64,000 nt of DNA from an uncultured Candidatus Rokubacteria bacterium (GTDB lineage Bacteria; Methylomirabilota; Methylomirabilia; Rokubacteriales; DASRDR01), in assembly GCA_963826115.1 (NCBI GenBank), contig CAWGVS010000005.1:1888001-1952000 (forward strand), in the 5' to 3' direction. Positions within the stretch are counted from its first letter, which is position 1. Each line of letters starts with the position of its first letter. Below, in pieces: positions 13,924 to 62,273 of the stretch. A program made the translations under genes and the position numbers. Under the pieces are notes generated by a model. It made no database searches. It was not told the origin of the DNA and was given only the letters and a program-made list of their open reading frames with translations.

Positions 13924-14943
13924 TCAGGCGGGCCGCCAGAAGAACTCCTTCTTGATGCGGTCCGGGCTGTCCCAGACGTCCGACTTCAGGAAGCCGGTCT
14001 CCTTGATGAGCTTGAGCTGGACCACCAGGGTGTCGATCTGCTCGTCGGACAGGCCGTGCATCATCTGGACCGTCTGTCCGTGCGCGTATTCCACGACCGG
14101 GCGCGGCATCTTCGTGATCTCGGTCGCGATGTCGATCGCCTTCGCCTTGTTCCCGTTCCAGATCTCGACTGCCTCGCGCTGGGCGTCGTTCAGATCCCGG
14201 GGGAAGGTCGGGTGCTTCTCGATGAAGCTCGGGTTCACCACGTAGCACACGTGCACCGGGTAACCCGTGGCACGGCCGGTGGCCTTGCGCCACAGGTCGA
14301 TCTGCTTGGCGACGTACACGCCGTCGCCGCGCTGGACGATGAGGTCGGACACCGGCTGCCACGCGATCACCGCGTCGACGTCCTTCTTCGCGAGCATGGT
14401 CGCCATGTCCGGCGGCGCCTGGGCGGTGATGAGCTGGGTGTCCTTCTGCACGTCGAGCCCGTAGCCCTTGAGCGTCAGGGACCGGATGTCCAGGAAGGTC
14501 GTCGTCCCGACCACCGCCGCGATCTTGCGACCCTTCAGGTCCTCGACCTTGGCGATGCCCGAGTCCTTCCCGGCGACGATCGCCCCCAGCACGGCCGTCG
14601 CCACGCCGGTGACCTTCACGGGAACCCCGTCCTCGAACATCTTCGCCGAGAGCGCGAACGACATGTCGATCGCGTCGACGTGACCGGCAGCGAACGTGTT
14701 GACGAGGCCGGCCGGCGAGCCCGGCACGACACTGTACTCCGCCTGCCAGCCGCGCTTCCCGAGGAGGTCCTCCTTGTGGACGATCTCGCACGCCGCCCAT
14801 CCGAGCTGGAGGTATGCGAAGCGGACCTTGCCCTTGCCCTGCGCCGCGGCGCGGCGCGCGGCGAAGCCGGCCAGCGCGGCGCCGGCCGCCACGCCGGACC
14901 GCAGGAAGTCTCGACGTCTCACCTGCCCTGCCTCAGGTCGCAT
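13924..14943 (-). CDS. NitT/TauT (NMT1/THI5-like) ABC substrate-binding protein, Tat-exported
   Basis: RRRDFL Tat signal, DLKGRKIA, VDAVIAWQP. Confidence 0.9.
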   Translation of the reverse strand: MRPEAGQVRRRDFLRSGVAAGAALAGFAARRAAAQGKGKVRFAYLQLGWAACEIVHKEDLLGKRGWQAEYSVVPGSPAGLVNTFAAGHVDAIDMSFALSAKMFEDGVPVKVTGVATAVLGAIVAGKDSGIAKVEDLKGRKIAAVVGTTTFLDIRSLTLKGYGLDVQKDTQLITAQAPPDMATMLAKKDVDAVIAWQPVSDLIVQRGDGVYVAKQIDLWRKATGRATGYPVHVCYVVNPSFIEKHPTFPRDLNDAQREAVEIWNGNKAKAIDIATEITKMPRPVVEYAHGQTVQMMHGLSDEQIDTLVVQLKLIKETGFLKSDVWDSPDRIKKEFFWRPA

Positions 14944-17029
14944 CGCTCGCCCTCCCTGACTCCGGATTCTCGGGATTCACCAGCACGAGCGCGTCCACGG
15001 CCACCAGCCGGCCGCCCGACGCGATCAGGGGATTCAGGTCTAGCTCCGCTACCTCCGGATGATCCAGCAAGAGGTCACCGACGCGGGTCACGATGTCCGC
15101 CAGCGCGCCCTCGTCCACCGCCGGCGCCCCCCGGTACCCCTCGAGGAGCGCCGCTCGCCGGCCCTCGCGCACCATCGCGCGCGCGTCCTCGGGCGCGAGC
15201 GGCGCGAGCCCGACCGACACGTCGCGGAGCAGCTCGGCCAGCACGCCGCCGAGACCCACCAGCACCACGGGCCCGAAGGTCGGGTCCCGCCGACCTCCCA
15301 CGAGGAGCTCGAGGCCCTGCCGTACTTCCTCCTGCACCAGGAGGGGCCCGGGACCGACGCGGGCCTCGAGGGCGCGCACGGCCCGCGTCAGCGCAGCACC
15401 GTCCCCGACGCCCAGCACGACCCCGCCTCGATCGCTCCGGTGAAGCACGTCGGCGCGCGCCGTCTTGACGACCAGAGGGTAGCCGATCTCCCCGGCGGCC
15501 GACAGGGCCTCGTCCGCCGTGGCGACGATCCGCTCGCGCGGGAACGGCACTCCGTAGGCTTCGAGGAGCAGGCGGGCCTCCTCATGCTCGAGAGGGCCGT
15601 GGGCGGCGCCGAGGCGCACGATCAGGCCCGCGGGCAGAACCGGCGCGTGCCGGCCGGCGGGCATCACGTCCGCGCCCCGCTGGAGCTCGCTGCGTCGGAC
15701 GAGCGCCCGGTACGCCCGCACGGCGCGCTCGGGGCCCGGCACGAGGGGGATCCCGGCCGCGCGGAGACGCGCGTCCATCTCCCGGGTGTCCACCGTGAAC
15801 GCGACGACAGGCTTTCCCGTGGCGGCCTGGGCCGTCACGAGCGCGTCCGCGTACGCGGGGCGGTCCAGGCCGACGTCGATCGCGACGGCGCCCGAGATCT
15901 CGGGCGCCTCGAGGACGAGGCGCACGCTCGGCTCGAAGCCGGCCGGCTCGATCTGGGGCGTCATGTCGACGGGATTTCCGTCGGCGCCGAAGTCCGGCAG
16001 CTGGGCCCGGAGCGCCCGCCGCCGCTCCTCGGACAGGGCCGGCACGCGGAGCCCCGCCGCCTCCGCGGCGTCGGCGGCGACCACCGAGGGTCCGCCCGAG
16101 ATCGTGAGGATCGCGATCGACCGGTCGCGCGGCAGACGCGTCGCGTGGGCCTCGAGCGTCACCATCGCGTCGAACAGCTCCTCGGTCTCGTCGACGGCGA
16201 CGACGCCGGCGGACGCGAACGCGGCGCGGTAGGTCTCCCACGCGCCGGCGAGCGAGCCCGTGTGAGAGCCCACGGCCCGCCGCCCCGCCTCCGCCCGTCC
16301 GCCCTTCAGCGCGACGACCGGCTTCGCCCGGGCGAGGCGACGTGCCGCGGCCACGAACGCCCGACCGTCGCGGATTCCCTCGACGAAGAGTCCCACGACC
16401 CGCGTGTCGGGATCGTCGGCGAGCCATCCGAGGCAGTCCGCGAACCCGAGGTCGGACTGGTTGCCGATCGAGAGGAACTTGGCGACCCCGAGCGAGCGCG
16501 CGCGCACCTCGCGGAAGAAGAGCCCGCCGTAGGCGCCGCTCTGCGACACGAAGGAGATGCCGCCCGGCTGCGCGGGCACGTCCCAGAAGTAGGAGGCATT
16601 GAGCCTCCCGGGGACGTTCACGACTCCCATGCAGTTCGGGCCGACGACGCGCATCCCGCTCGTCCGGGCGATCGCCTCGATCTCGTCCTGGACGGCCCGC
16701 CCGGCGCGTCCCGTCTCCCCGAACCCCGAGGAGAGAACCACGCACATCCGACAGCCCCGCGCGGCCAGCTCGCGCACGGCGGGCAGCACGGCCTTCGCGG
16801 GCAGGCTGACGAGCGCCAGGTCCAGCCCGCGCGGGAGGTCCTCGACGCGCGTCACGGAGGGGCGGCCGAGGATGGGCTCGCCGCTCGGGTTGACGGGGAA
16901 CACCTCGCCCGGGAAACCCGGAGCAACGAGGTTCTGGACGAGCCGGTGGCCGAGCTTCGCCGGGTTCCGCGAGGCCCCGAGGACCGCCACCCCGCGCGGG
17001 GCGAAGAGCGGCGCGAGATCGACGGTCAC
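14933..17029 (-). CDS. ADP-forming acyl-CoA synthetase (acetate-CoA ligase family, alpha+beta fusion)
   Basis: VAVLGAS, VVGPNCMG, SQSGA, SIGNQSD, phospho-His motif SHTGSLAG, C-terminal ATP-grasp DPTFGP/ELDLNP. GTG start 17029. Confidence 0.92.
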   Translation of the reverse strand: MTVDLAPLFAPRGVAVLGASRNPAKLGHRLVQNLVAPGFPGEVFPVNPSGEPILGRPSVTRVEDLPRGLDLALVSLPAKAVLPAVRELAARGCRMCVVLSSGFGETGRAGRAVQDEIEAIARTSGMRVVGPNCMGVVNVPGRLNASYFWDVPAQPGGISFVSQSGAYGGLFFREVRARSLGVAKFLSIGNQSDLGFADCLGWLADDPDTRVVGLFVEGIRDGRAFVAAARRLARAKPVVALKGGRAEAGRRAVGSHTGSLAGAWETYRAAFASAGVVAVDETEELFDAMVTLEAHATRLPRDRSIAILTISGGPSVVAADAAEAAGLRVPALSEERRRALRAQLPDFGADGNPVDMTPQIEPAGFEPSVRLVLEAPEISGAVAIDVGLDRPAYADALVTAQAATGKPVVAFTVDTREMDARLRAAGIPLVPGPERAVRAYRALVRRSELQRGADVMPAGRHAPVLPAGLIVRLGAAHGPLEHEEARLLLEAYGVPFPRERIVATADEALSAAGEIGYPLVVKTARADVLHRSDRGGVVLGVGDGAALTRAVRALEARVGPGPLLVQEEVRQGLELLVGGRRDPTFGPVVLVGLGGVLAELLRDVSVGLAPLAPEDARAMVREGRRAALLEGYRGAPAVDEGALADIVTRVGDLLLDHPEVAELDLNPLIASGGRLVAVDALVLVNPENPESGRASDAT

Positions 17030-17049
17030 CGGATTCTCGCGTCGCGCCG

Positions 17050-18378
17050 TCAGGCGCGGCCGGGGCGCGTGAGCTCCCGGAGGTCCTCGATCTCGTCGAC
17101 GCGGCCGAGCGCGTCGCGGAGACGCCGGGTCTCGGCCGCGCCCATCCGGGGCCCGACGAGGGCCTCGAACTTCGCGCCGAGCTCGCGCCGGAGTCGCTCC
17201 GGATCTCGGCCGAGCCGGAGGTCCCCGACCCGCTCCCGGACCGACCCGTCGCGGAGCCGCACGACGGCCCGCGCGCGGGACTCGTCGAGCTCGGCCTGGG
17301 GCGAGAGGCGCACGCGCTCCGCCAGCGCCCGCGTCGCGAGATCCCGGACCGCCTCGGCGGTGAAGTGCTCCTCGACGACGCGGCCGCGGAGGAGCGCGCT
17401 CGCGGCGCAGTAGGTCATGCTGAACTTGCCGCCGAGGCCCGTCTCGGGACGGCGCTGGTCGGCCACCAGGAGGGTCGTGCGGCAGACATCGAGGTCCACG
17501 CTCTCGATCGCCGCGGGGTCGACCTCCGTGCGGAGATCGAGGAGCGCCGTGAGAGCCGCGTGCGTCGCGAAGCAGCACGGGAAGCGCTTGAAGAACACCT
17601 CGTTCACGGCCCAGTCGCGGCCGAGCCCCTCGGCCAGGCGGGCGGGCGCCCAGTCCGGCGACAGCCGCCGCGCCCAGGTGTCGCGGTCGAGCACGCCCGC
17701 CGGGCCCGTCACGCCGCGCGCGGCAAGCATCGCGGCCAGGAGCCCGTCCGCCGCCGCGCGACCGACCTGGAACGGCTTCCCCATCGTGCCGAACGACTCG
17801 TGAATCCCGCCGAGCTGGGCGGCCGCCAGCCCGACTGCGCGATCGATCCCCGCCGCGTCCAGGCCCAGGAGCCGCCCGCACGCCGCCGCACCCCCGAGCC
17901 TGCCCAGGGTCGCCGTGGCGTGCCAGCCGGCACGGTAGTGCCCCGGCGCGAGCGCGCGCGAGATCCGGCACATCACCTCGACGCCCAGCACGAACGCGGC
18001 GAGGACGTCGCGACCCTCCGCCCCCGTCGTCTCCCCGAGCGCGAGGAGCCCCGGCAGGAGCGGCGCCGTCACGTGACCCGGCAACGCGAGCACGGTGTCG
18101 TCGTAGTCGAGCGCGTGCGACGCGGTCCCGTTCCAGAGGGCCGCGGTCACCGGCGAGGCCGTGCGGTCCGTCCCCAGGACCGACGCCGGGCCGGCCGGCT
18201 CCGGCACGGCCTCGCGGAGCAGCTGGGCGACCGGCTCGTCGACGCCGCCCACCGTGACGCCCCACCAGTCGAGCACGGCCAGGCGGCCCATCTCGACCGC
18301 CGCCTTCGGCAGCGCCTCGAAGGGCGTCTCCGCCACCAGGGCGAGCAGCTCGGCCCCCGGAGTCCTCGCGCCGCTCAT
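17050..18378 (-). CDS. MmgE/PrpD family protein
   Basis: NGTASHALDYDD, GWHAT, FGTMGKP, KRFPCCFATH, KFSM. Confidence 0.9.
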   Translation of the reverse strand: MSGARTPGAELLALVAETPFEALPKAAVEMGRLAVLDWWGVTVGGVDEPVAQLLREAVPEPAGPASVLGTDRTASPVTAALWNGTASHALDYDDTVLALPGHVTAPLLPGLLALGETTGAEGRDVLAAFVLGVEVMCRISRALAPGHYRAGWHATATLGRLGGAAACGRLLGLDAAGIDRAVGLAAAQLGGIHESFGTMGKPFQVGRAAADGLLAAMLAARGVTGPAGVLDRDTWARRLSPDWAPARLAEGLGRDWAVNEVFFKRFPCCFATHAALTALLDLRTEVDPAAIESVDLDVCRTTLLVADQRRPETGLGGKFSMTYCAASALLRGRVVEEHFTAEAVRDLATRALAERVRLSPQAELDESRARAVVRLRDGSVRERVGDLRLGRDPERLRRELGAKFEALVGPRMGAAETRRLRDALGRVDEIEDLRELTRPGRA

Positions 18379-18944
18379 GATCCGCCTCCCGTCCGCGAGA
18401 AGAACGCCTCGGCCCGCCGGGCGATCTCGCGCGCCGACAGGTCTTCCTTGTGCGTGGCCAGCCCCCATTCGTGGCCGAACGGGTCGGCAACCTTGGCGTA
18501 GCGGTCCCCCCAGAACATGTCCGTTACCGGCATCCGGACCTCGGCGCCCGCCGCCACCGCGCGCCGGAACGCGCGGTCCACGTCCCGGACGTAGAGGTGC
18601 AGCGTGCCGGTCGCTCCGCCGAGTGTCTGCGGGGCGCGGCAGCCCATGTCCGGGAACTCGTCGGCCAGGAACACGATCGAGTCTCCGATCTGCAGCTCCG
18701 CGTGCATGATCGTCTTGCCGTCCGGGAGCGGCATGCGCCCGCGCTCGCGGGCGCCGAAGGCGCGGCGGTAGAACTCGATCGCGTCGGCCGCTCCGCGTAC
18801 GGTCAGGTGGGGCGTGACGGTGTGGTAGCCCCGCGGGATCGCCGCCGCACGACCGACCGCCCGCGCCGCGTGGCGCCGCCTGCGGCGCTCGGGTCCGACG
18901 ACCTTCGCCCGCGCGGTCGCCTTCCTGCTGGCCGCCTTCCTCAT
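18375..18944 (-). CDS. VOC/glyoxalase (PhnB-like) protein with basic N-terminal tail
   Basis: GYHTVTPHL, AIEFYRRAFGA, HAELQIGDS, DMFWGDRY..VADPFGHEW. Confidence 0.88.
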   Translation of the reverse strand: MRKAASRKATARAKVVGPERRRRRHAARAVGRAAAIPRGYHTVTPHLTVRGAADAIEFYRRAFGARERGRMPLPDGKTIMHAELQIGDSIVFLADEFPDMGCRAPQTLGGATGTLHLYVRDVDRAFRRAVAAGAEVRMPVTDMFWGDRYAKVADPFGHEWGLATHKEDLSAREIARRAEAFFSRTGGGS

Positions 18945-20224
18945 GGCGCTCCCGTCCTTTCTCGCCGGTCCACCACCCGGACCGACTTGCCGGTGGGCCG
19001 CGGGATCTCCCCGGGGGCCATCGGCCGGATCTCCGGCGTGAGACTGAGCCGATCTCTCAGCTCGCGCAAGAGGCGGGTCTCCGCGGCCGGGTCGAACGCG
19101 GGGCCGGCCTCGACGCACAGGACCAGATGGTCGCCGCGCTGGGCGTCCCGGTCCAGCACGATCTGGTACTCGTGGTCGAGCCCCGGTTGGCGGAGGAGAA
19201 TCTGCTCGACCTGGCTCGGATAGAAGTTCACGCCCTTGAAGATGACCATGTCGTCCGTGCGGCCGTGGAAGCGGTCCAGGCGGACGCCGGTGCGTCCGCA
19301 CGCGCACCGCTCCCGCGACCGGATGCGCGTGACGTCCCGCGTCCGGTAGCGGACCAGCGGCAGCCCCTGCCGCGTGAGCGTGGTCACGACCAGCTCGCCC
19401 CGCTCGGCGTCGGGCAGCACCCGGCCGGTCGCGGGATCGATGATCTCCGGGAGGTAGTGGTCGTCCCACACGTGGATGCCGTCGCGCGCCTCGCACTCGA
19501 TCCCCATGCCGGGGCCGCCCGTCTCCGTCATGCCAATGAGGTCGTGGGTCCGGACGCCCATCTCCGTCTCGATCCGGGCCCTGAGCGCATCGGACCACGG
19601 CTCGGATCCGAGGAGGGCGACGCGCAGCCGGGTCGACCGGAAGTCGAACCCTTCCTCGCGCGCCACCTCGATCATGCGCAAGGGGTACGTCGCGATCGCC
19701 GCGAGCGCGGTCGCCCCGAGGTCCCGCAGGAGCTGGAGCTGGAGGAGCGTCCGGCCGGCCCCGACCGGGATCACCATGGCGCCGAGCGCCTCGGCCCCGA
19801 AGTGGAAGCCGAAGCCGCCCGTGAACAGGCCGAACGACGCGGTTACCAGCAGCACGTCCCGCGCCGTGACCCCGGCCACCGCGAGCGAGCGCGCCATGAC
19901 CTCGCGCCACTGGTCGATGTCGGCGGCGGTGTACGGGTTGACGACCGGCGAGCCCGTCGTCCCGGACGACATCTGTATCCGGCGGATCGGCTCGGGCCCG
20001 TGACAGGCCATCTCGAACGGATACCCGTCGCGGAGCCGCTCCTTCGTCAGGAAGGGCAGCCGCCGGAGATCGTCGAGCGAGGTCAGATCGCCCGGGGCGA
20101 CCGCGCCGAGGTGCCGCCGGTAGGCCGGATTCCGGGCGACGCGACCAAGCGTGTCCCGGAGCCGCTCGAGCTGGAGGGCATCGAGCGCCGCCCGATCGCG
20201 CGTCTCCTCGGTCGGCTGGAACAT
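18941..20224 (-). CDS. Phenylacetate-CoA ligase (PaaK) family aryl-acetate CoA ligase
   Basis: SSGTTG, FGLFTGGFG, GSEPWS, GMTE, RYRTRD, GRTDDM...KGVN. Confidence 0.92.
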   Translation of the reverse strand: MFQPTEETRDRAALDALQLERLRDTLGRVARNPAYRRHLGAVAPGDLTSLDDLRRLPFLTKERLRDGYPFEMACHGPEPIRRIQMSSGTTGSPVVNPYTAADIDQWREVMARSLAVAGVTARDVLLVTASFGLFTGGFGFHFGAEALGAMVIPVGAGRTLLQLQLLRDLGATALAAIATYPLRMIEVAREEGFDFRSTRLRVALLGSEPWSDALRARIETEMGVRTHDLIGMTETGGPGMGIECEARDGIHVWDDHYLPEIIDPATGRVLPDAERGELVVTTLTRQGLPLVRYRTRDVTRIRSRERCACGRTGVRLDRFHGRTDDMVIFKGVNFYPSQVEQILLRQPGLDHEYQIVLDRDAQRGDHLVLCVEAGPAFDPAAETRLLRELRDRLSLTPEIRPMAPGEIPRPTGKSVRVVDRRERTGAP

Positions 20225-47169: not shown

Positions 47170-47200
47170 GCGTCCTCCTCGGCGGTCGGTCGGCGCCAGT

Positions 47201-47887: not shown

Positions 47888-49084
47888 TCAGACGATGATC
47901 CCGCGCTCCCGCAGGACGCCGATCCGCTCGGCCGGATACCCGAGGAGGTCCCGGAGCACCGGATCGGTGTCCTGCCCCAGCGCGCGCGGCGCGGCGGGGC
48001 GGAACGGCGGCGCGCCGTCCGGTCTCACCGGCGTCCCCAGGGTCCTGAGCCTTCCGAGCGAGGGGTGGTCCAGGTCCACCACCATCTCGCGGAGCAGCAC
48101 CTGGGGGTCGCTGACGACCTGGTCCACCGAGTTGATCGGCGCGACGGGCACGCCCTCCTGCTGGAGCCGGGCGAGCCACTCGGCGGTCGTGCGCGACGGG
48201 AAGACGGCCTCGAGCGTCGGGACCAGTTCCGCGCGGCGCTCCACGCGCTTCGGGTTCGAGTCGAACCGGGGGTCGGTCGCGAGGTCGGGGCGCTCGATCG
48301 CCCGGCAGAACCCCGTCCAAAACTTCTCGGCGAAGACGGCGACGACGACGTGGCCGTCCCGCGTGGAGAAGGCCTGGTAGGGCACGACCGACGCGTGCCC
48401 CGAGCCGACCCGCCCCGGCACGCGCCCGTCCGCCCAGAAGTACTGGGCGACGTAGGTCAGGAGCGACACCTGGCAGTCGAGAAGCGAGAGGTCGAAGTGC
48501 GTCCCCTCGCCCGTCTGGGCGCGCCGGAAGAGCGCGCTCGCCACCGCGAGCGCGCCGAACATCCCGCCCGCCAGGTCGCCCATGGGCAGGCCCATCCGCG
48601 CGGGCGCACGGCCCGCCTCGCCGGTGAGGCTCATCGCGCCGCCCATGGCCTGGAGGGCAAGGTCGAACGCCGGCCACTCCCGGTACGGCCCCTCCTGGCC
48701 GAAGGCGGAGATCGAGCACACCACGAGGCGGGGGTTGAGCCGCCGGAGGGTCGCGGGCGCGCAGCCGAGCCGCTCCATCACCCCGGGGCGGAAGTTCTCC
48801 CACACGACATCCGACACGCGGCAGAGGTCGTGCAAGACGTCCCGGCCCTCGGGCGTCTCGAGGTCGAGGGCCACGCTCTTCTTGTTCCGGTTGATGGACA
48901 GGAAGTACGCGCTCTCGCGCTCGGGCCCGAGGAACGGCGGCCCCATCGCGCGCATCGGGTCGCCGCCCCGGGGGTCCTCGATCTTGATGACCTCCGCGCC
49001 CAGGTCGGCCAGGAGCATCGAGCCGTAGGGCCCGGCCAGCATGCGGGAGAGGTCCAGGACCCGGACGCCGGCGAGGAGCATCAC
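47888..49084 (-). CDS. CaiB/BaiF class III CoA-transferase
   Basis: VLDLSRMLAGP, LADLGAEVIKIE, NRNKKS, ENFRPG, catalytic GD. Confidence 0.95.
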   Translation of the reverse strand: MMLLAGVRVLDLSRMLAGPYGSMLLADLGAEVIKIEDPRGGDPMRAMGPPFLGPERESAYFLSINRNKKSVALDLETPEGRDVLHDLCRVSDVVWENFRPGVMERLGCAPATLRRLNPRLVVCSISAFGQEGPYREWPAFDLALQAMGGAMSLTGEAGRAPARMGLPMGDLAGGMFGALAVASALFRRAQTGEGTHFDLSLLDCQVSLLTYVAQYFWADGRVPGRVGSGHASVVPYQAFSTRDGHVVVAVFAEKFWTGFCRAIERPDLATDPRFDSNPKRVERRAELVPTLEAVFPSRTTAEWLARLQQEGVPVAPINSVDQVVSDPQVLLREMVVDLDHPSLGRLRTLGTPVRPDGAPPFRPAAPRALGQDTDPVLRDLLGYPAERIGVLRERGIIV

Positions 49085-49088
49085 GCTG

Positions 49089-49856
49089 TCAGCGCCGGCG
49101 CGCCAGCACGTCGTAGGACGGCTGGTGGGCCTGGAACGAGACGCCGGGGCCGTCGTAGAGGTCGGTGACGACCACCACGTCGAACCCGTGGCGCCGGAGC
49201 GCGGCCTCGATCTCCTCCACGGTGTGAAGACGCATCACGTGGCGCTCGCGCGCGACGTGCTCCGGCGTCTCCAGCGTGAGGTCAACCGTCAGGGTCCGCG
49301 CGTCGTCGTCGAACCGGCCGCGGCTGTCGGCCACGACGCGGCCGCCCGCCACCATCCGCGAGTTCCGGAAGGTGTAGCGACGCCGGCCGTCAGGCGTGAT
49401 GAAGTCGAACAGGAAGAGGCCGCCGGGACGGAGGCGGGCCCGGAGCGCTTCGAGGAAGACCTCGAGCCCGCCGTCCTGCGCTCCCACGTACGCGACAACG
49501 TCGTCGATCGCGGTCACCAGGTCGAAAGTCGGTGCGGCACGGAGGCAGTCGAGGGTGCCGCACACCCGGACGAGGCGGCCCTCCGTCCCGCCGAGCCGCG
49601 CGCGCACCAGCATCGCGTGGAGCAGGTCGAGACACAGCGACCGGTACCCGGCGCGCGCCCAGTACCGGCTGTACCGGCAGGTCCCGGCGCCCACGTCCAG
49701 GTGGCGCCCGCCGACGAGACCGGCGGACGCGACGAGCCGGGAGGAGCTCACGAACCAGCGCCGGATCCCCCGTGGCTCGAACAGCTGCGCGAAATACGGC
49801 GCGAGGGTCGCGTACGGCCGCTCGGCGGGCGAGGTCACCGGGGCGAGCGCGCTCAC
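49089..49856 (-). CDS. Class I SAM-dependent methyltransferase
   Basis: LDVGAGT, FDLVT, LRPGGLFLFD, ERHVMR. Confidence 0.82.
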   Translation of the reverse strand: MSALAPVTSPAERPYATLAPYFAQLFEPRGIRRWFVSSSRLVASAGLVGGRHLDVGAGTCRYSRYWARAGYRSLCLDLLHAMLVRARLGGTEGRLVRVCGTLDCLRAAPTFDLVTAIDDVVAYVGAQDGGLEVFLEALRARLRPGGLFLFDFITPDGRRRYTFRNSRMVAGGRVVADSRGRFDDDARTLTVDLTLETPEHVARERHVMRLHTVEEIEAALRRHGFDVVVVTDLYDGPGVSFQAHQPSYDVLARRR

Positions 49857-50584
49857 CGGACGCGACCGCAGACGGTGAGGACGACCTGCGCGCAGAGGAA
49901 CCGGCCCGCCCGGTCCGCGTCGATCAGGCTCTCCACCCACCTCGCCGCGTCCGCGGCGGAGACCGCGCCGGCCTTGGCGGCACGCTCGGCCTTGTCGCGA
50001 AGCTTCAGCACCTCTTCGTCGTACTCCGTCGCGACGGCCGCGTAGGGCGTCACCGAGACCGCGTCGAGGCCCGCGTCGAGGAACAGCCCCGGGAGCTTCC
50101 GCCCCACGCGACCGCTCTCCATGCGGTCCGAGTGGTGCGCCAGGATCCGGCGCGTGACCTCGGCGTCGGCCGCCTCGACCACCAGGGTGTCGTAGTCCGT
50201 ATCGCTGACCGCGATCCGCCCGCCGCCTCTCGTCACGCGCGCCATCTCGGCGAGCGCCTTCGGCGGGTCCGTCAGGTGGTGAAACACGCGGTCGGCCCGG
50301 CACGCGTCGAACGTCCGGTCCTCGAAGGGGAGCGCGTACGCGTCGGCGACGCGGAAGTCCACGGGCCGGGGAAGGCCGAGTGTCTGCGCCCGAGCCTCGC
50401 GGACCTTGTCCTCGGTCCAGTCGATCCCGATCACGGAGACACCGCGAACCAGGCCGGCGATCGCCCGGACGTCCTCCCCGGTGCCGCAGCCGACGTCCAG
50501 GACCTGGTCCCCCTCGGCCAGCGTCAGGAGCTCGAAGCTCCGCGCCTTGTAGCCGAGCCAGGCAGCCTCCGCGGTGCGCCCCAT
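49853..50584 (-). CDS. Class I SAM-dependent methyltransferase (UbiE-like)
   Basis: VLDVGCGTG, ADAYALPFED..FD, EMARVTRGGG. Confidence 0.88.
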   Translation of the reverse strand: MGRTAEAAWLGYKARSFELLTLAEGDQVLDVGCGTGEDVRAIAGLVRGVSVIGIDWTEDKVREARAQTLGLPRPVDFRVADAYALPFEDRTFDACRADRVFHHLTDPPKALAEMARVTRGGGRIAVSDTDYDTLVVEAADAEVTRRILAHHSDRMESGRVGRKLPGLFLDAGLDAVSVTPYAAVATEYDEEVLKLRDKAERAAKAGAVSAADAARWVESLIDADRAGRFLCAQVVLTVCGRVR

Positions 50585-50588: not shown

Positions 50589-52214
50589 TCAGAACGCGGT
50601 GGGTTCCTTGTGCTCGCCCCACACGTCGCGGAGGGCGCCAGCCATCTCTCCGAGCGTGGCGTAAGCCCGCACCGCCTCCAGGATCGGCGGCATGAGGTTG
50701 TCACGGCCCCGCGCCGTGTCGCGGAGACGCCCCAGCGTTCCGTCCACCGCGCCCTGGTCCCGCTCGCGGCGAAGGCGCCGGAGCCGGGCGACCTGCGCCT
50801 CGGCCACGCCCGGATCGGACGCGTAGAGCTCGATCGCGTCCGACGTCTCGCGCCCGGCGTCGGGAGCGACGTGGCGGTTCACCCCGACCTTCGGGTACTC
50901 CCCGGACAGCATCATCTGCTCGAACCGGTAGGCCTGCCGGGCGACCTCCGCCTGGATCGCGCCCGACTTCACGCCCTCGACGATGCCGCCCATGCGCTCG
51001 ACCCGCTCCATCTCGACCCGGATCCGCGCCTCCATCTCGTTCGTGAGCGCCTCGACGAAGTACGATCCGGCGAGCGGGTCGACGGTGTCCGCCACCCCCG
51101 TCTCCTCCGCGCAGATCTGCATCGTGCGGAGCGCGATCAGCTGGGCCTTGGGCGACGGGATGGTGTAGGCCTCGTCGTACGTCGGCAAGGCGCTCGTCTG
51201 ACACCCCGAGAGCGCCGCCGCGAGGCTGTAGTAGGCGCCGCGCACGATGTTGTTCTCGGGCTCCTGCACCGTGAAGCCGGAGCCGCCGCCGCCGATCAGC
51301 GAGCGGAACATCATCGACCGCGGGTTCTTCGCCCCGAAGCGCTCCTTCATGAGCCGCGCGTACAGCCGCCGGCCGGCCCGGAACTTCGCGACCTCCTCGA
51401 ACAGCCTGCCCCAGCACGTGAAATTGAACGACAGACGGGGCGCGAACTCGTCGACCGGCAGGCCGCGCTTCACCAGGAGGTCGGTGTAGGCGGCGACGAT
51501 CAGGAGCCCGTAGGCCATCTCCTGGGCCGGCGTGCACCCGGCCTCGCGGATGTGGTAGCCGCAGACCGAGATCGGGTTGACCTTCGGCGCGTGCCGCGCG
51601 CAGAACTCGGCGATGTCGCAGACGAGGCGGAGCGAGGGGTCCACGGGGTAGACCCACGTCCCGCGCGCGACGAACTCCTTGAGGATGTCGTTCTGGGGCG
51701 TGGTGACGACGCGATCCCAGGCAACGCCCTGCTTCTCGGCGACCACCAGGAACATCGCCTGGATGAAGGCCGCCATGGAGTTGATCGTGAACGAGATGGA
51801 GACCCGATCGGCCGCGATGCCGTCGAACGCCTCCTCCATGTCGAGGAGGGAGTCGATCGCCATCCCCACCCGGCCGACCTCGCCCTCCGCGCGGGGGTCG
51901 TCGGAGTCGAGACCGAGCTGCGTGGGCAGATCGAACGCGACGTTGAGCGCGTCCTGGCCGTGGGCCATCAGGTACTTGAAGCGGGCGTTCGTCTCCGCGG
52001 GGGTCCCGAAGCCGACGTACTGGCGCATCGTCCACACCCGCGAGCGGTACATGTGCGGGTGGATCCCGCGGGTGAAGGGGTACTCGCCGGGGTCGCCGAG
52101 ATCGCGACCGTAGTCGAGCCCGGCGAGGTCAGCGGGCCCGTAGACGGGCTTCACCTCGATGCCGTCGAGATAGGTGACGTCCCTCGGCTTCTTCTCCCCG
52201 CGCGGCTCCGCCAT
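50589..52214 (-). CDS. B12-dependent acyl-CoA mutase large subunit (methylmalonyl-CoA mutase family, atypical active site)
   Basis: [48 protein letters not shown]. Confidence 0.95.
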
Positions 52215-52226: not shown

Positions 52227-52631
52227 CTACGCCTCGGCCCGCCGGAGCGACCGGAAGTACGACACGATCTCGGGCAAGGGCGTCCCCATGGGGAAGACGG
52301 CGCGCACTCCCATGGCCCGCAGCGTCTCGGCGTCGCGCGCCGGGATCGTGCCCCCGACCACCACGGTGACGTCGGCCGCGTCCGCCGCCTGGAGCCCGTG
52401 GAGCAGGCGACGCGACAAGGTCAGGTGCGCGCCGGACAGCACCGACAACCCGATGACGTCCACGTCTTCCTGGACCGCCTCGGCGACCAGCTCGTCGGGG
52501 GTGCGCTTCAGGCCCGAGTACACCACCTCGATGCCCGCGTCGCGGAGGGCGTGCGCCACGACCTTGGCGCCGCGGTCGTGGCCGTCGAGCCCCGGCTTCG
52601 CGATCAGCACCCTGAGCGGACGGTCCGTCAC
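52227..52631 (-). CDS. Acyl-CoA mutase small cobalamin-binding subunit
   Basis: [25 protein letters not shown]. Confidence 0.95.
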
Positions 52632-53101
52632 GAGGAGCCCTTCGCCGGCGTGAAGGCGAGCAGGTGTCGTGGCTGCCCCTGGGGGTCGTCCGCGACCCGC
52701 ACCGGGGTGAAGCGGACGTCGGCACCCACCGCGAGCGTCGCGGGGTCTCCCACGCCCAGGAGGGGCGTGAACACACGCAGCCCCGCGACGTCCACGATCG
52801 CGAAGACGCGGGGCCGCGGGAAGCCGGCGGGCACGCCGGTCTCTTGGATGCTGAACCCGCGGATCCGGCCGACGTGCGGGAGGTCCACCCAGTCGAAGGC
52901 ATCGGACGTGCACGCCGGGCAGAAGCCGCGCGGCGGCCAGTCGACCCGGCCGCAGCCCCGGCACCGGGTGGTCGTGAGACGTCCCTCCGCCAGGTGCGCG
53001 TAGAACGGGTGGAGCTTGTTGTGCTCCGGCGACTCGAGCGGCAGCGGGTCCACCACCCGGGCGTATGGACGCTGGGGTGACGCGGCAGCGGGCTCCGTCA
53101 T
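52628..53101 (-). CDS. DUF35 Zn-ribbon/OB-fold protein (thiolase partner)
   Basis: CRGCG..WPPR.FCPAC followed by an OB-fold region. Confidence 0.9.
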
Positions 53102-55273: not shown

Positions 55274-56443
55274 TCAGGCCGGGTCGCGACCGTACAGCAT
55301 GACGACGTGCTCGCCCATCCCCGAGTTGTTGTGGGTGAGGGCAAGCCGCGCGCCCGGGACCTGGCGAGGGCCAGCCTCGTCGCGGAGCTGCCAGAAGGCC
55401 TCGCTCGCCTGGGCGATGCCGGTGGCGCCAAGAGGGTGGCCGCAGCCGATGAGTCCGCCGCGCGGGTTGACGACGACCTTTCCGCCGTAGTCCGACAGGC
55501 CCTTCTCGACGAACCGGCCGCCCTCGCCCTTCGGGCAGAACCCGAGCTCCTCGTACGCGATGATCTCGGCGATGGCGAAGCAGTCGTGCACCTCGGCCAG
55601 GTCCACGTCGTCGGGGCCGACGCCGGCCATGCGGTACGCCTGTTCCCCCGCCCGCCGGAGCGCCGGCCAGCTCGCGTAGTCCTCGGGCAGCGAGGAGAGC
55701 GTGAACCCGTCCAGCGCCTGGCCGGTCCCGCGGATCCACACCGGCCGGTCCGTGAGGTCGCGGGCCCGCTCCTCGCTGGCGACGATCACGGCGGCGGCCC
55801 CATCCGTGATGGGCGAGCACATGAACAGCCGGAAGGGCGTCGCGATCATGCGGGAACACAGCACCTGGTCGAGGGTCGCGCCCTTCCGGAAGTGCGCGTA
55901 GGGGTTCCGGGCCGCGTGGTTGTGGTTCTTCACGCTGACCAGCGCCATCTGCTCCTCGGTCGTGCCGTGTCGCGCCATGTGGGCCTGGGCCGCGAGGGCG
56001 AAGCACGGCGGCGCCGTGAGGCCGTGGGCCGCCTCCCACTCGCGGTCGACGCCCGTGCCCATGTTGAGGATGGCCTCGTCCGGCGTCGGGACGTTCAGCT
56101 TCTCGACACCGAGCACCATGACCAGGTCGGCGAGTCCGGCGGCGATGAAGGCGTACGCGTACCGGAGCCCGACCGTCCCCGACGCGCACATGTGCTCGGT
56201 GCGGGCCGACAGCCGGCTCGGCTTGATGCCGAGCGCCTCGGCGGCGAGAGAGGCGACGTGGCTCTGGAAGGCCGTGCGCTCGGGCATGACCGAGCCCACC
56301 ACGATCCCCTCGAGATCGGCCGGGCGCACGCCAGGAATGGAGTCGAAGCAGGCCTTCCCGGCTTCCCAGATCAGGTCCCGGTACGTCGCCTTGCGCACCC
56401 CGAACGGTGTCATGCCGGCTCCGACCAGGGCCACTCGTCGCAT
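55274..56443 (-). CDS. SCP-x/SCP2-type thiolase domain protein
   Basis: EHMCASG, KNH.HA.RNP.A, CSPITDGAAA, EVHDCF, GHPLGATG. Confidence 0.92.
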   Translation of the reverse strand: MRRVALVGAGMTPFGVRKATYRDLIWEAGKACFDSIPGVRPADLEGIVVGSVMPERTAFQSHVASLAAEALGIKPSRLSARTEHMCASGTVGLRYAYAFIAAGLADLVMVLGVEKLNVPTPDEAILNMGTGVDREWEAAHGLTAPPCFALAAQAHMARHGTTEEQMALVSVKNHNHAARNPYAHFRKGATLDQVLCSRMIATPFRLFMCSPITDGAAAVIVASEERARDLTDRPVWIRGTGQALDGFTLSSLPEDYASWPALRRAGEQAYRMAGVGPDDVDLAEVHDCFAIAEIIAYEELGFCPKGEGGRFVEKGLSDYGGKVVVNPRGGLIGCGHPLGATGIAQASEAFWQLRDEAGPRQVPGARLALTHNNSGMGEHVVMLYGRDPA

Positions 56444-59085: not shown

Positions 59086-59829
59086 TCAGACGCCGACGGA
59101 CATGCCGCCGTCGACGAAGAGCACCTGGCCGGTGATGTACGCGGCGTCCTCCGAGGCGAGGAAGGCGTGGACCGCGGCGATCTCGTCGGGGCGGGCGATG
59201 CGTCCGGTCGGCACGCGCGCGACGATCTTCTCGCGGATCGCCTCCGGGACGCTCGCCAGCATGCGCGTCATGACCGGCCCGGGCGCGACACAGTTCACGG
59301 TGATCCCGTACTTGGCGTACTCGAGAGCGAGCGTTCGGGTGAGGCCGATGACTCCCGCCTTCGAGGCGGCGTAGTTGGCCTGGCCGATGTTGCCGAGCGA
59401 CCCGATCGAGGACGTGTTGATGACGCGCCCCCAGCCCCGCTCCCGCATCCGGGCGAGGGCGGCCTGGGCGCAGAGGAACGTGCCCTTCAGGTTGACGGAC
59501 AGGACCTGGTCCCACTGCTCCTCGGTCATCTTGTGGCTCATCGCGTCGCGGTTGATCCCCGCGTTGTTGACGAGGACGTCCAGTCGGCCGAACTCCCCGA
59601 CGACGTGGTTCATCATGGCCTCGACCTCGGCGCGCTTCGTCACGTCCGCCCCGACGGCCAGGGCGCGCACGCCATCCCTCTGGAGATCGGTGACCACCGA
59701 CCGCGCCATCTCGACGTCGACGTCGTTCGCGACGACGATGGCGCCCTCACGCGCGAAGCGCCGGGCCGTCGCCTCGCCGATCCCGCTCCCCGCGCCCGTG
59801 ACCAGCGCCACCTTCCCTTCGAGCCGCAT
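59086..59829 (-). CDS. SDR oxidoreductase (FabG/3-hydroxyacyl-CoA dehydrogenase-like)
   Basis: TGAGSGIG, NNAGINRD, GQANYAASKAG, VDGG. Confidence 0.93.
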   Translation of the reverse strand: MRLEGKVALVTGAGSGIGEATARRFAREGAIVVANDVDVEMARSVVTDLQRDGVRALAVGADVTKRAEVEAMMNHVVGEFGRLDVLVNNAGINRDAMSHKMTEEQWDQVLSVNLKGTFLCAQAALARMRERGWGRVINTSSIGSLGNIGQANYAASKAGVIGLTRTLALEYAKYGITVNCVAPGPVMTRMLASVPEAIREKIVARVPTGRIARPDEIAAVHAFLASEDAAYITGQVLFVDGGMSVGV

Positions 59830-59849: not shown

Positions 59850-60605
59850 TCAGTCGCCGGCGCGGGCGACCGCGACGAGCCGGGCCGCGTCGAGTCCGTA
59901 GGGGCTGCCGTCCAGCCCTCCATGAAGCGACACCGTCGCGAATCCGGCCTCGCGCAGCCGATCCCGGAGCTCCGACCCCGAGTACATCCTCAGGCGGAAC
60001 CGCGCCGCACGCACCCGATCGCCCTGAATCAGCAGCCACTCGTGTTCGATCGCCGTCCAGTCCTCCACGACCTGGCAGCGCTCGACCAGCACGGCCCCGC
60101 CGGCGAGCGTTCGCGATCGAGTCGGCTGGAAGATTCGCGCGAGATTCTCCTTGCCCATCAGGTCCATCACCAGGGCGCCGCCCGGTCGGAGGCTCTGGCG
60201 CACGTTGCGCAAGACCAGGAGGTCGTCCTCCGGCGCCGCGAAGAACCCGAATGACGTGAAGAGCGACAGCGCGAGGTCATAGGCAGCCGGCCGCCGGAAC
60301 TCACGCATGTCCGCCTGCACCCACTCGACGTCCACCGCGGCGAGACTCGCTCGCTCGCGCGCCCGGTCGAGGAGCTGAGCGGCACGGTCCACGCCGGTGA
60401 CCCGGAGCCCGCGCTGTGCGAGCGGAACGGCGTGCCGGCCCGGGCCGCAGCAGAGGTCGAGGGCCGCCTTCCCCGCGGGTGCCGCGATTCCCGCCAGCGC
60501 GAGCGCTTGCGCGGCCTCGTCCGCGCCCAGGCGGAGCCGCTCCTCGGCGAACAGGAACGGGTAGAAGTCGCTCCAGAGCGCTTCGTCCTCGAACCATTCG
60601 CCCAT
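59850..60605 (-). CDS. Class I SAM-dependent methyltransferase
   Basis: LDLCCGPGRH, ADMR, LFTSFGF, LRPGG. Confidence 0.9.
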   Translation of the reverse strand: MGEWFEDEALWSDFYPFLFAEERLRLGADEAAQALALAGIAAPAGKAALDLCCGPGRHAVPLAQRGLRVTGVDRAAQLLDRARERASLAAVDVEWVQADMREFRRPAAYDLALSLFTSFGFFAAPEDDLLVLRNVRQSLRPGGALVMDLMGKENLARIFQPTRSRTLAGGAVLVERCQVVEDWTAIEHEWLLIQGDRVRAARFRLRMYSGSELRDRLREAGFATVSLHGGLDGSPYGLDAARLVAVARAGD

Positions 60606-60663: not shown

Positions 60664-61122
60664 TCAGCACCGCCGCGCCATGAGGGTGGTCCACTCCGCC
60701 TGGCACACCGTCTCCCCTCGCTGGTTCCGCACCGCCATGTCCATGACCAGCACGCCCCGGTCGGGCTTCGAGGATGCGCGCGTCTCCCGCACGGTCAAGA
60801 CCGTGTGGATCGTGTCGCCGAGCCGCACCGGCGCCGTCCACCGGATCTTGTCCATGCCGAGAAGTGCGAGCGTCGTCCCCTCGAAGATCCCCAGCTGGTT
60901 GGCCCCGCCGGTGGCCACCGCGAGGACGAGCATGCCGTGGGCGATCCGGCCCTTCATCGGGCTCTGCCGCGCCGATTCCTCGTCGGTGTGCAGCGGGTTG
61001 AAGTCCCCGGAGAGCCCGGCGAAGGAGTCGACGGCGCCCTCGGTGACGGTGCGGGCCGCGGTGGTAAAGGCCTCGCCCACCGTGAACTCCTCGAAGTGGC
61101 GGCCGCGCGGCGCGTAGGTCAT
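60664..61122 (-). CDS. MaoC-family (R)-specific enoyl-CoA hydratase
   Basis: FAGLSGDFNPLH, RIAHG, APVRLGDT. Start overlaps the ACAD stop. Confidence 0.92.
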   Translation of the reverse strand: MTYAPRGRHFEEFTVGEAFTTAARTVTEGAVDSFAGLSGDFNPLHTDEESARQSPMKGRIAHGMLVLAVATGGANQLGIFEGTTLALLGMDKIRWTAPVRLGDTIHTVLTVRETRASSKPDRGVLVMDMAVRNQRGETVCQAEWTTLMARRC

Positions 61123-62273
61123 CCGAAGCTCGGCGGGCGGTCGAGATCGCGCCCGATGATGACGCGCAGGATCTCGCTCGTGCCGCCGCCCCACAGAAGG
61201 AACCGCGCGTCCCGGAAATACCGTTCGATCGGATACTCGGTGGCGAACGAGTACGAAGCGAAGATCCGCGAGGCCTCGTCGCAGATCCGGTTCGCGGCCT
61301 CGGACGCGAAGAGCTTCGTCATCGCGGCCTCCCGCGTCACCGGCCGGCCCTGATCGATGGACCACGCGGCGTGGTAGACGAGCAGGCTCGCCGCGTGGAG
61401 CTGGGTCAGCATGTCGACGAGCCGGAAGGTCACCGCCTGGTGCTCGCCGATCGGCTTGCCGAAGGTCACGCGCTCCTTGGAATAGCGGAGGGCAGCCTCG
61501 TACGCCGCGCGGCCGAGACCGACCGACAGGGCTCCGGTCATCACGCGGATCTCGGACAGGATCCCGCCCACCTTCTCGACGCCCCCGGTCTCGCCGCCGA
61601 GGAGGTGCTCGTCCGGAACCCGCACGTCGTCGAGGATGATCTCTCCAGTGGCCGAGGCCCGCACGCCGAGCTTGTCGATCTTCTTCCCGAGCGTCACGCC
61701 GGGAAACTGCCGGTCGACGAGGAACAGCGCGATGTGCTTCATCCCGCGCTCGGGGGACGTCTTGGCGCACACCGTCAGCATGTCGGCGACCGGGGCGTTC
61801 GTGACCCACGTCTTGGTGCCCCGCAGCCGCCAGCCGCCCTCGACCCGCTCGGCGGTGGTCGCGAGGTTGCCGATGTCCGAGCCGGCGTTGGGCTCGGTGA
61901 GCGCGAACGTCGCGATCTTCTCGCCGCGGAGCGCCGGCGCGAGGTAGCGCTCGCGGAGCGCGTCGCTCCCGTACTTCCAGACGAAGTGCGTCCCCATGAG
62001 GCTCTGCATCGCCGCGAGCGCGGCGACCGACATCGATCCCCGGGCCAGCTCCTCGGCGAAGAGGCAGTAGGTCACGAAGTCGGCTTCGACCCCGCCGTAG
62101 GCCTCGGGGTAGCGGAGCGCGAGGTACCCCAGCTCGCCGAGGCGCCGGAAGAGCGCGCGCGGGAACTCGCCGGCCTCGTCGATCTCGCGCGCGACGGGCG
62201 CGACCTCGGCGTCGACGAAGCGAGCGACGGCCCGGCGGAACTCCTCCTGCTCCGGGCTCAGTCGGAAGTCCAT
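61119..62273 (-). CDS. Acyl-CoA dehydrogenase family protein lacking the canonical catalytic Glu
   Basis: FALTEPNAGSD, GTKTWVTN, KLGVRAS.T, FGKPI..HQ, ERYFRDA, LWGGGTSEI. Confidence 0.93.
   Translation of the reverse strand: MDFRLSPEQEEFRRAVARFVDAEVAPVAREIDEAGEFPRALFRRLGELGYLALRYPEAYGGVEADFVTYCLFAEELARGSMSVAALAAMQSLMGTHFVWKYGSDALRERYLAPALRGEKIATFALTEPNAGSDIGNLATTAERVEGGWRLRGTKTWVTNAPVADMLTVCAKTSPERGMKHIALFLVDRQFPGVTLGKKIDKLGVRASATGEIILDDVRVPDEHLLGGETGGVEKVGGILSEIRVMTGALSVGLGRAAYEAALRYSKERVTFGKPIGEHQAVTFRLVDMLTQLHAASLLVYHAAWSIDQGRPVTREAAMTKLFASEAANRICDEASRIFASYSFATEYPIERYFRDARFLLWGGGTSEILRVIIGRDLDRPPSFG

Follow-up and report, generated by a model that had tools for sequence, protein, structure and literature searches.

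Gene content and layout of the locus

The stretch analysed here (the window) comprises 64,000 nucleotides, C5:1888001-1952000, of the genome of an uncultured Candidatus Rokubacteria bacterium (6.24 Mb in 12 contigs; completeness 99%, contamination 5.3%). Dispersed among unrelated genes, it carries enzymes resembling those of the iaa pathway, the oxygen-independent conversion of indoleacetate into 2-aminobenzoyl-CoA, and we consider it probable (roughly 0.7) that most of a Rokubacterial form of that pathway is encoded in the window. Because the G+C content is about 72%, genes were called by third-position G+C; the called genes were scanned with Pfam, and NCBIfam models were scored against their own cut-offs. 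By comparison of the mutase gene, the nearest relatives are metagenome-assembled genomes (MAGs) of Candidatus Rokubacteria/Methylomirabilota, with identities of 72-96%. The first 13 kb contain housekeeping genes (ribosomal proteins S2, S9 and L13, and ArgJ). The pathway candidates are the following:

61122-62273, minus strand: acyl-CoA dehydrogenase (ACAD), candidate (2-aminobenzyl)malonyl-CoA dehydrogenase of the IaaF type (Pfam ACAD domains, GGG motif, clade)
60667-61122, minus strand: MaoC-type (R)-enoyl-CoA hydratase (Pfam)
59089-59829, minus strand: SDR, candidate 3-hydroxyacyl-CoA dehydrogenase of side-chain beta-oxidation (Pfam)
55277-56443, minus strand: SCP-x/archaeal-type thiolase (Pfam Thiolase_C_1)
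52631-53101, minus strand: DUF35/zinc-ribbon thiolase partner (Pfam zf-ChsH2)
52230-52631, minus strand: B12-binding small subunit of the mutase (MutS), IaaG-like (Pfam B12-binding)
50592-52214, minus strand: mutase large subunit (MutL), arylsuccinyl-CoA/benzylmalonyl-CoA type, IaaH-like (motifs, clade)
47891-49084, minus strand: family III CoA-transferase, succinyl-CoA:dicarboxylate type (Pfam CoA_transf_3)
46321-47214, minus strand: XDH-family FAD subunit (Pfam)
45792-46310, minus strand: XDH-family [2Fe-2S] subunit (Pfam Fer2_2/Fer2)
43513-45792, minus strand: molybdopterin (Mo) subunit, candidate indoleacetyl-CoA 2-hydroxylase (Pfam)
18944-20224, minus strand: PaaK-type aryl-acetate-CoA ligase, candidate indoleacetate-CoA ligase (Pfam AMP-binding and AMP-binding_C_2)

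A first-pass annotation of the window had proposed a dispersed iaa-like gene set. The Pfam scan recovers every gene family that it named, all on the minus strand and in place; only the start of the XDH FAD subunit, put at 47169, falls on no ATG, the available ones being at 47214 or 47064. The dispersed layout is likewise real, with unrelated genes interposed between the named ones: three class I methyltransferases, an ankyrin-NUDIX protein, a phosphatase-like protein, a PIG-V-like membrane protein, a glycosyltransferase, an acyltransferase, a cupin, Opp-type and Liv-type ABC systems, a citrate-type transporter and several unknowns. The single operon of the Aromatoleum-type iaa cluster is not found here, the genes being scattered from window position 18944 to C5:1988189.

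The NCBIfam scan gave no equivalog-level name for the dehydrogenase, mutase, transferase, Mo enzyme or ligase. Since the transferase and XDH families are multi-copy (besides the window copies, the genome has 20 family III transferases and 10 XDH Mo subunits), clustering at the family level alone means little. The signal sits at the level of orthologues, as the same subfamilies are neighbours in other Rokubacteria and also in further phyla.

The dehydrogenase, the mutase and the molybdenum enzyme

In the C-terminal active-site motif of the ACAD, GGG replaces YEG (...FLLWGGGTSEIL...), and the catalytic Glu is missing. The Discussion of PMC8360864 describes the exchange of YEG for GGG as the feature that distinguishes the IaaF (benzylmalonyl-CoA dehydrogenase) subclass, in which decarboxylation at C2 takes the place of proton abstraction by Glu; the abstract reports an oxidase behaviour of IaaF and its use of some medium-chain alkylmalonyl-CoAs. 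The window enzyme is 50% identical to that of Aromatoleum toluclasticum ATCC 700605 (L210), an enzyme that shares 97% identity with A. evansii proteins and carries the name benzylmalonyl-CoA dehydrogenase in NCBI and UniRef. Phylogenetic analysis (FastTree, LG+gamma) unites 74 mutase-linked GGG ACADs, including the window and Aromatoleum enzymes, in one clade with a support of 0.993. By its motif and its place on the BMal branch, the window ACAD is of the IaaF type. The motif is present in 27 of 28 ACAD rows adjoining this mutase (L003-L051), the 28th being a mis-called fragment of 37 residues. As a control, 80 generic, mostly unrelated ACAD loci yielded by a profile-guided search with 11 GGG ACADs were inspected; GGG occurs in 2 of their 87 ACAD alignments (L061, L062). 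L062 also carries the mutase, XDH and hydantoinase, and the L061 locus stops at the ACAD.

The start of the MaoC gene overlaps the stop of the ACAD gene, and MaoC adjoins the ACAD in the compact Rokubacterial loci L024, L025 and L034 and in the archaeal loci L173, L197 and L216 (51-57% identity). An orthologue of the SDR follows MaoC in L025 (70%), and archaeal clusters encode SDRs with 59-62% identity.

Two further ACADs were encountered. One lies on a Massilia putida plasmid (L157, NZ_CP019037.1, locus 15992-17137) and is 48% identical to the window enzyme; in the ACAD tree it is sister to the GGG clade, outside it. Its neighbours are ETF genes, an ADP-forming-type 'acetate--CoA ligase', a BKACE-family protein, a cupin and an FAH-family protein. 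This locus, the best hit of a plasmid search, was rejected as a named iaa cluster, as it has a GGG ACAD and ETF genes without mutase, XDH or hydantoinase. The context implies that GGG dehydrogenases also serve outside iaa clusters, on some 2-carboxyacyl-CoA. The other ACAD (L154:6745-7992, equal to C5:1958745-1959992) carries a Gly-rich motif where YEG would be expected; it scores best against 3-sulfinopropanoyl-CoA desulfinase (516.8, cut-off 600), and at 32% identity it is unrelated to the IaaF clade.

The mutase is of the two-subunit IaaGH type and is linked to the IaaF-type ACAD. MutS scores 153.2 against TIGR00640 (cut-off 57.45) and is 49% identical to the L210 subunit, whereas MutL and the Aromatoleum large subunit are reciprocal best matches with 54% identity, compared with 44-47% to paralogues of MutL in its own genome. 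Two active-site motifs are exchanged in MutL, FH[TCA]QT..LT for IGGGGSGFT and LHTN for ALPT; both are kept in eight of the nine canonical mutases of the set. The glycine loop is present in 48 of 57 aligned mutase rows, the window included, and absent from the nine canonical rows; in other phyla it takes the form AGGGGGGLT, accompanied by ALC. The nearest solved relative of MutL is 2-hydroxyisobutyryl-CoA mutase, whose Ile/Asp pair is absent from MutL. MutL retains the residues aligned with Tyr89, Arg207 and Tyr243/His244 of methylmalonyl-CoA mutase (MCM; numbering assumed), and the retained Arg fits a substrate with a free carboxylate. The glycine loop may line or enlarge the substrate pocket to accommodate an aryl group. 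In the mutase tree (FastTree, LG+gamma), 120 glycine-loop mutases including that of Aromatoleum form one clade with a support of 0.99, from which the nine canonical mutases are excluded. With a score of 488.7 against NF006944 (cut-off 876) and replaced HxQT and HTN motifs, the protein is not assigned to MCM; a canonical MCM-like gene is found elsewhere in the genome, at C12:854598.

Two other mutase regions were noted in this genome. A paralogue at C5:1823818-1830366 bears the Ile/Asp signature of 2-hydroxyisobutyryl-CoA mutase (RQIAGYG, SVDFDMPT, AQKEW) and is accompanied by a small subunit and a PaaK-like ligase. At C6:341484-347096, an isobutyryl-CoA-mutase-like gene (Phe/Gln signature) is flanked by two ACADs.

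A degenerate DNA pattern for the glycine loop matched at least 120 stretches of genome contigs, and the mutase is encoded in 75 of the 78 new loci among the matches listed. Altogether, at least 126 loci from bacteria and archaea contain the glycine-loop mutase. Linkage was counted in the 60 loci, among the matches listed, with at least 6 kb on both sides:

GGG ACAD: 47
Family III transferase: 54
XDH Mo subunit: 50
Hydantoinase: 41
Thiolase: 46
MaoC: 12
IOR-like gene: 10
TrpB2: 8
PaaK-type ligase: 3

The listed loci belong to Methylomirabilota, Chloroflexota, Planctomycetota, Myxococcota, Desulfobacterota-type MAGs, Gemmatimonadota, Bacteroidota, Actinomycetota, Firmicutes-type MAGs, Alpha-, Beta- and Gammaproteobacteria, and Thermoplasmatales/Methanomassiliicoccales archaea. 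The co-occurrence presupposed by the first-pass annotation is therefore strong: mutase and ACAD are linked with the CoA-transferase, the XDH-type Mo enzyme and hydantoinase A/B across phyla. Some loci contain only mutase and transferase (L160, L168, L190). In compact Rokubacterial clusters (L017, L021, L024, L025, L034) the whole set is contiguous and comprises hydantoinase A and B (HydAB), ACAD, MaoC, SDR or 3HCDH, thiolase, DUF35, mutase, XDH-Mo, CaiB and the PaaK-type ligase. The window lineage thus represents an expanded, interrupted form of a compact ancestral cluster.

The genes at 43513-47214 encode a three-subunit XDH-family Mo hydroxylase. The FAD subunit aligns over its full length with CO-dehydrogenase medium subunits and is 38% identical to its Aromatoleum counterpart; the FeS subunit reaches 45%. 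The Mo subunit is a reciprocal best match of the Aromatoleum protein, with about 50-51% identity in both directions against 38% for the next paralogue of its own genome. Its nearest solved structure is the alpha subunit of 4-hydroxybenzoyl-CoA reductase (447.6 bits, against 299 for the next), although the equivalog models of that enzyme are not reached (alpha 636.9 against 994.55, beta 167.3 against 404.55, gamma 167.3 against 257.8). The Mo-subunit tree groups 69 cluster-linked sequences to the exclusion of all 10 own paralogues, at a node with a support of 0.54-0.58. In seven compact Rokubacterial loci (L016, L017, L021, L024, L025, L034, L035) the Mo subunit stands alone, without adjacent FAD and FeS genes; the trio is found instead in the window lineage and in other phyla.

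Accessory enzymes and neighbouring genes

The CoA-transferase has human SUGCT as its nearest solved structure (307 bits; benzylsuccinate CoA-transferase subunit, 162 bits) and is 31% identical to the IaaL-type enzyme of Aromatoleum. In the transferase tree (FastTree) all 20 own paralogues lie between two clades, one of window type with 36 sequences (0.99) and one of IaaL type with 61 (1.0). The 36 window-type sequences, drawn from several phyla, accompany the same mutase, and the window transferase would be a functional stand-in for IaaL, not its orthologue. A 228-residue protein encoded between the transferase and the XDH trio has only a sub-threshold GNAT match.

The ligase falls below the PaaK equivalog models (TIGR02155, 395.6 against 646.3; NF041878, 402.3 against 700). 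Its orthologues (60-66% identity) reside within the compact clusters L021, L024, L025 and L034, and its next own paralogue shows 43-46%. The Aromatoleum ligase (L210) has 519 residues and the domains AMP-binding/AMP-binding_C; the window ligase matches this IaaB over 103 residues only, with 30% identity. It is of PaaK type, not of IaaB type. Another PaaK-like ligase and another XDH trio adjoin BoxB at C6:280790-290211.

The thiolase scores 413.5 against PRK06064 (cut-off 420) and is 79-87% identical to those of the compact Rokubacterial clusters. Compared with Aromatoleum IaaA it shows 26% identity over 307 residues and is not an IaaA orthologue. The DUF35 gene lies between thiolase and mutase in all compact Rokubacterial loci, and its stop overlaps the start of the MutS gene in the window.

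Hydantoinase, missing from the window as the first-pass annotation had remarked, is present in the genome. Among seven Hydantoinase_A matches, the HydAB pair at C5:1984354-1988189, 32 kb past the window end, is 65-68% identical to that of L034 and 66-68% identical to those of L017, L021 and L024, which are cluster-contiguous copies. It belongs to a unit of Liv ABC, HydA, HydB, DUF6152, DUF6644 and EamA. A second pair on C12 was set aside as pathway lactamase, as it has no related neighbours. Two mutase-linked HydAB subtypes occur by lineage, one in L175, L179, L182, L186, L211, L217 and L235, the other in L210, L039 and others; relative to the L039 type, HydB of mutase-linked loci shows an identity of about 70% in one case and of about 30% in the other.

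The product 2-aminobenzoyl-CoA is probably handled with oxygen, judging from the gene content. A 781-residue FAD-monooxygenase/OYE fusion is encoded about 15 kb past the window (C5:1966836-1969178; NF006101, 1170.8 against a cut-off of 1078), beside an SDR, a crotonase and a benzoate-CoA-ligase-family gene; a second crotonase and a second transferase also lie between the window and the HydAB pair. BoxB is present in the genome (863.9 against 499.1), and the class I benzoyl-CoA reductase B subunit has no match in this genome of 99% completeness. These three findings suggest an oxygen-dependent lower pathway, which would suit the oxidase behaviour reported for IaaF in the abstract of PMC8360864.

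The remaining features of interest are:

62305-63849, minus strand: TrpB2 (TrpB-like pyridoxal phosphate enzyme), directly upstream of the ACAD (NF009057, 745.8 against a cut-off of 366)
59853-60605: third class I S-adenosylmethionine (SAM) methyltransferase
49092-50584, minus strand: two class I SAM methyltransferases between mutase and transferase (Pfam)
37317-38090, minus strand: GntR(FCD) regulator (Pfam)
32418-37274, minus strand: Liv-type ABC transporter (Pfam)
14936-17029, minus strand: ADP-forming acyl-CoA synthetase (Pfam)

TrpB2 occurs in the genome only in this copy and its C11 twin. Among the matches listed it lies within the fetched flanks of 13 of the 126 mutase loci, eight of them Rokubacterial, the others being from Anaerolineales (L032, L211), Polyangiaceae (L038, L039) and Flavobacteriales (L232). 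The arithmetic chance of finding a single-copy gene in a given 20-kb neighbourhood of a 5-Mb genome is about 0.4%, and the link is therefore unlikely to be accidental. TrpB2 is a recurrent neighbour of the mutase, with a candidate role only. The L039 cluster also contains IOR-like subunits and a class V aminotransferase, which would provide a complete entry from indole through tryptophan and indolepyruvate to indoleacetyl-CoA. The window genome has no close homologue of IOR, the best match being 25% identical.

At the 49092-50584 site, one methyltransferase is found in L011-L015, both in the closest relatives, and none in L016-L035 or other phyla. These two are lineage-specific insertions that are not part of the reference pathway. 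The methyltransferases sit in tight gene strings, with gaps of 4-7 bases to mutase and transferase, and appear to have been added stepwise. The three methyltransferases, the phosphatase-like protein and the unknowns matched no specific NCBIfam family; for the methyltransferases all family matches are far below the cut-offs.

The first-pass annotation had also counted the GntR regulator, the Liv transporter and the ADP-forming ligase among the pathway genes, and these links find no support. The window Liv system is only 27-42% identical to that of the compact cluster L034, the GntR protein matches the Aromatoleum iaa GntR with 32% identity over 99 residues, and GntR/Liv are absent from the C11 copy, L003 and L004, being kept only in the close relative L005. 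No homologue of the ADP-forming synthetase exists in any of the 126 mutase loci searched; in the window it is strung together with genes for a glyoxalase, an MmgE/PrpD protein and the PaaK-type ligase.

An OppB-type permease in the window (30005-31011) is split over two overlapping frames, of which 30481-31011 encodes the N-terminal domain and 30005-30649 the transporter domain, owing to a frameshift or assembly error. A second syntenic copy of about 80 kb is found at C11:153673-238110; it covers window 20996-63849 and the HydAB/monooxygenase part. Its proteins are mostly 72-96% identical to those of the window (63% for one Liv binding protein), and it lacks GntR/Liv, the cupin, GT1, MaoC, MT3 and the PIG-V-like gene. 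The coding sequences of the two mutase subunits, of the transferase and of two more genes each extend over more than one frame there. This copy could be a co-binned related strain, given the contamination of 5.3%, a true duplication, or a product of indel errors. One related MAG likewise has two copies of the region (L006, L007).

Proposed route, alternatives and known systems

The subfamily membership of dehydrogenase and mutase, the linkage of the gene set across phyla and the presence of genes or candidate genes for all steps in the genome are established. From the published iaa pathway, as given in secondary sources, we infer the substrate and every reaction. The PaaK-type ligase would form indoleacetyl-CoA, which the XDH-type Mo enzyme would hydroxylate at C2 to the 2-oxo (lactam) form. 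The ATP-dependent hydantoinase-like lactamase (C5:1984354-1988189) would open the ring to (2-aminophenyl)succinate or its CoA ester, and the family III transferase, with succinyl-CoA, would set the right CoA regioisomer. The B12 mutase would then yield (2-aminobenzyl)malonyl-CoA, which the GGG-type dehydrogenase would oxidise and decarboxylate to 2-aminocinnamoyl-CoA. Finally, the MaoC hydratase, the SDR and the thiolase with DUF35 would shorten the side chain to 2-aminobenzoyl-CoA and acetyl-CoA. Where IOR-like genes are present (10 of the 60 listed loci), they would turn indolepyruvate into indoleacetyl-CoA.

The iaa-like reading is thus largely supported with respect to its core: ACAD and mutase group with the Aromatoleum iaa enzymes in their respective trees (0.993 and 0.99) and have unusual motifs in common with them. 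The Mo enzyme joins them through its reciprocal best match and paralogue-free clade, at a weak node. Several observations weigh against this reading. The support of that Mo-subunit clade is low (0.54-0.58); the transferase lies outside the IaaL clade; and ligase and thiolase are mere superfamily relatives of IaaB and IaaA. The HydA at C5 is only about 38% identical to Aromatoleum HydA (IaaC), the HydB beside it is not among the top three own matches of Aromatoleum HydB, and the C12 pair is slightly closer, which indicates that two hydantoinase subtypes serve the clusters. GGG is not exclusive to iaa contexts, as the Massilia plasmid ACAD has no mutase or XDH nearby, and the reference cluster is that of A. 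toluclasticum, not of the strains in which iaa was studied. The pathway genes, moreover, extend over more than 80 kb and are interrupted by unrelated genes, so that any co-regulation is putative; the public sequencing runs for this genome include no RNA run, and the DNA runs contain at most 0.29 of the sampled words.

The lack of orthology of the transferase, ligase and thiolase, and the lack of orthology or large distance of the hydantoinase, would also be compatible with the same enzyme logic acting on another substrate, auxin not being the physiological one: another N-heterocycle that forms a 3-carboxymethyl lactam, a substituted indoleacetate, or an aryl- or alkylsuccinate entering at the transferase. 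The loci with only mutase and transferase (L160, L168, L190), the alkylmalonyl-CoAs accepted by IaaF according to the abstract of PMC8360864, and the GGG ACADs outside iaa contexts point in that direction. We nevertheless consider it unlikely, as XDH (50 of 60) and hydantoinase (41 of 60) accompany the mutase in the listed loci, a combination that fits hydroxylation and opening of an N-heterocycle to a substituted succinate, and as the IOR-like genes and the TrpB2 found in several phyla suggest indole compounds. In another version, the cluster would be the core of an indole/tryptophan-to-anthraniloyl-CoA route, completed in Rokubacteria by an oxygen-dependent 2-aminobenzoyl-CoA monooxygenase/reductase, rather than a dedicated auxin scavenger. 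Indole would then be captured by TrpB2 in the form of tryptophan, indoleacetyl-CoA would be supplied by an aminotransferase and, in other phyla, by an IOR-like enzyme, and the non-orthologous transferase, ligase and thiolase would reflect independent assembly around the conserved mutase-dehydrogenase pair. This version, which we hold to be possible but doubtful, would combine an oxygen-independent upper part with an oxygen-dependent lower part in a hybrid pathway not described for any organism.

It appears highly improbable that the gene set is decaying or inactive in this lineage, with dispersal and insertions as signs of an eroding cluster. Unrelated genes do interrupt the set over more than 80 kb, and the C11 copy is frameshifted in the mutase subunits, the transferase and others, although these frameshifts may be assembly errors. 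The window copies, however, are all intact open frames with strong codon bias, and stop/start overlaps are retained (ACAD-MaoC and DUF35-MutS). Core proteins are 90-96% identical among relatives against 70-86% for the inserted genes, which suggests purifying selection on the core. Still less credible is a chance co-location of genes for ordinary propionate metabolism (MCM), fatty-acid beta-oxidation and a purine or aldehyde XDH. All of these families are common and multi-copy in the genome, but the mutase misses the MCM equivalog (488.7 against 876) and both MCM motifs while a canonical MCM-like gene exists at C12:854598, the ACAD has lost its catalytic Glu, and synteny at the orthologue level spans many phyla; motifs, both trees and linkage already contradict this explanation.

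If the indoleacetate route operates as proposed, Rokubacteria, which are abundant uncultured soil bacteria, would be consumers of a plant hormone in soil. The pathway extends far beyond a few cultured denitrifiers and sulfate reducers (at least 126 loci in bacteria and archaea), with only the mutase-dehydrogenase pair fixed and with transferase, ligase, thiolase and lactamase swapped. The GGG motif of the dehydrogenase and the glycine loop with ALPT/ALC of the mutase are simple sequence markers for it in metagenomes. Among the matches listed, the literature pairing Rokubacteria with auxin consists of community surveys, none of which describes these genes; the primary literature on the iaa cluster may already describe non-proteobacterial forms.

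The aerobic hybrid pathway of A. evansii uses a 2-aminobenzoyl-CoA monooxygenase/reductase. The fusion protein at C5:1966836-1969178 resembles this enzyme and salicylyl-CoA 5-hydroxylase in passing the equivalog cut-off of their family (NF006101), but it is encoded outside the window, and the flanks of the other loci contain none. The bbs system (benzylsuccinate beta-oxidation of anaerobic toluene degraders) shares a family III succinyl-CoA:arylsuccinate CoA-transferase and a thiolase with a DUF35 zinc-ribbon subunit. The window proteins are far below the respective cut-offs (thiolase against BbsB, 218 bits, cut-off 750; DUF35 against BbsA, 37 bits, cut-off 250), and the bbs route has no B12 mutase, decarboxylating dehydrogenase, Mo enzyme or lactamase. 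The build of the window set recurs in the archaeal/Anaerolineae form (Thermoplasmatales L173, Methanomassiliicoccales L197, L216, Anaerolineae L217), with ACAD, MaoC, SDR, SCP-x-type thiolase, MutS and MutL, and, in L197 and L216, a window-type transferase (50-51%). Unlike the window, this form is compact and has no XDH within the fetched flanks; in L173, HydAB and an OYE/Pyr_redox reductase adjoin the cluster. IaaF orthologues are listed for Thermoplasmatales and Ferroglobus in PMC8360864.

The reference system is the iaa cluster of A. aromaticum EbN1 and A. evansii KB740, which converts indoleacetate to 2-aminobenzoyl-CoA anaerobically. Its counterpart in A. toluclasticum (L210) has the order GntR, thiolase, AMP-ligase, HydA, HydB, ACAD, MutS, MutL, XDH FAD/FeS/Mo, CaiB; an Aromatoleum MAG (L163) is also among the glycine-loop matches. 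The assignments of iaaI, iaaJ, iaaK and iaaA follow this gene order and are putative. The order agrees with the published assignments: iaaABCDEFGHIJKLMPQR for the locus (PMC9613470), a hydantoinase-like hydrolase for IaaCE (PMC8453981), and ligase, dehydrogenase, mutase and transferase for IaaB, IaaF, IaaGH and IaaL, respectively (PMC8360864). The Rokubacterial set shares with iaa the GGG dehydrogenase (50%), the IaaGH-type mutase (54% and 49%) with the same Gly loop and the three-subunit Mo enzyme (38-51%); it likewise encodes a family III transferase, a CoA ligase, a beta-oxidation set and a candidate hydantoinase-like A/B lactamase. By contrast, its transferase belongs to another family III subfamily, its ligase is of PaaK type, and its thiolase is of SCP-x type with DUF35. 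MaoC and SDR stand in it where some proteobacterial iaa-type loci (L162, L228) have crotonase and 3HCDH-type enzymes, neither of which is found within the fetched flanks of L210. The hydantoinase is of a distant subtype and lies 32 kb off, the genes are scattered, and the lower pathway is likely oxygen-dependent. These findings leave the chemistry known from Aromatoleum unchanged and define no new kind of system: with its conserved core of mutase, dehydrogenase and Mo enzyme, its swapped accessory enzymes and its fragmentation by inserted genes, the Rokubacterial set is a variant of a known pathway.

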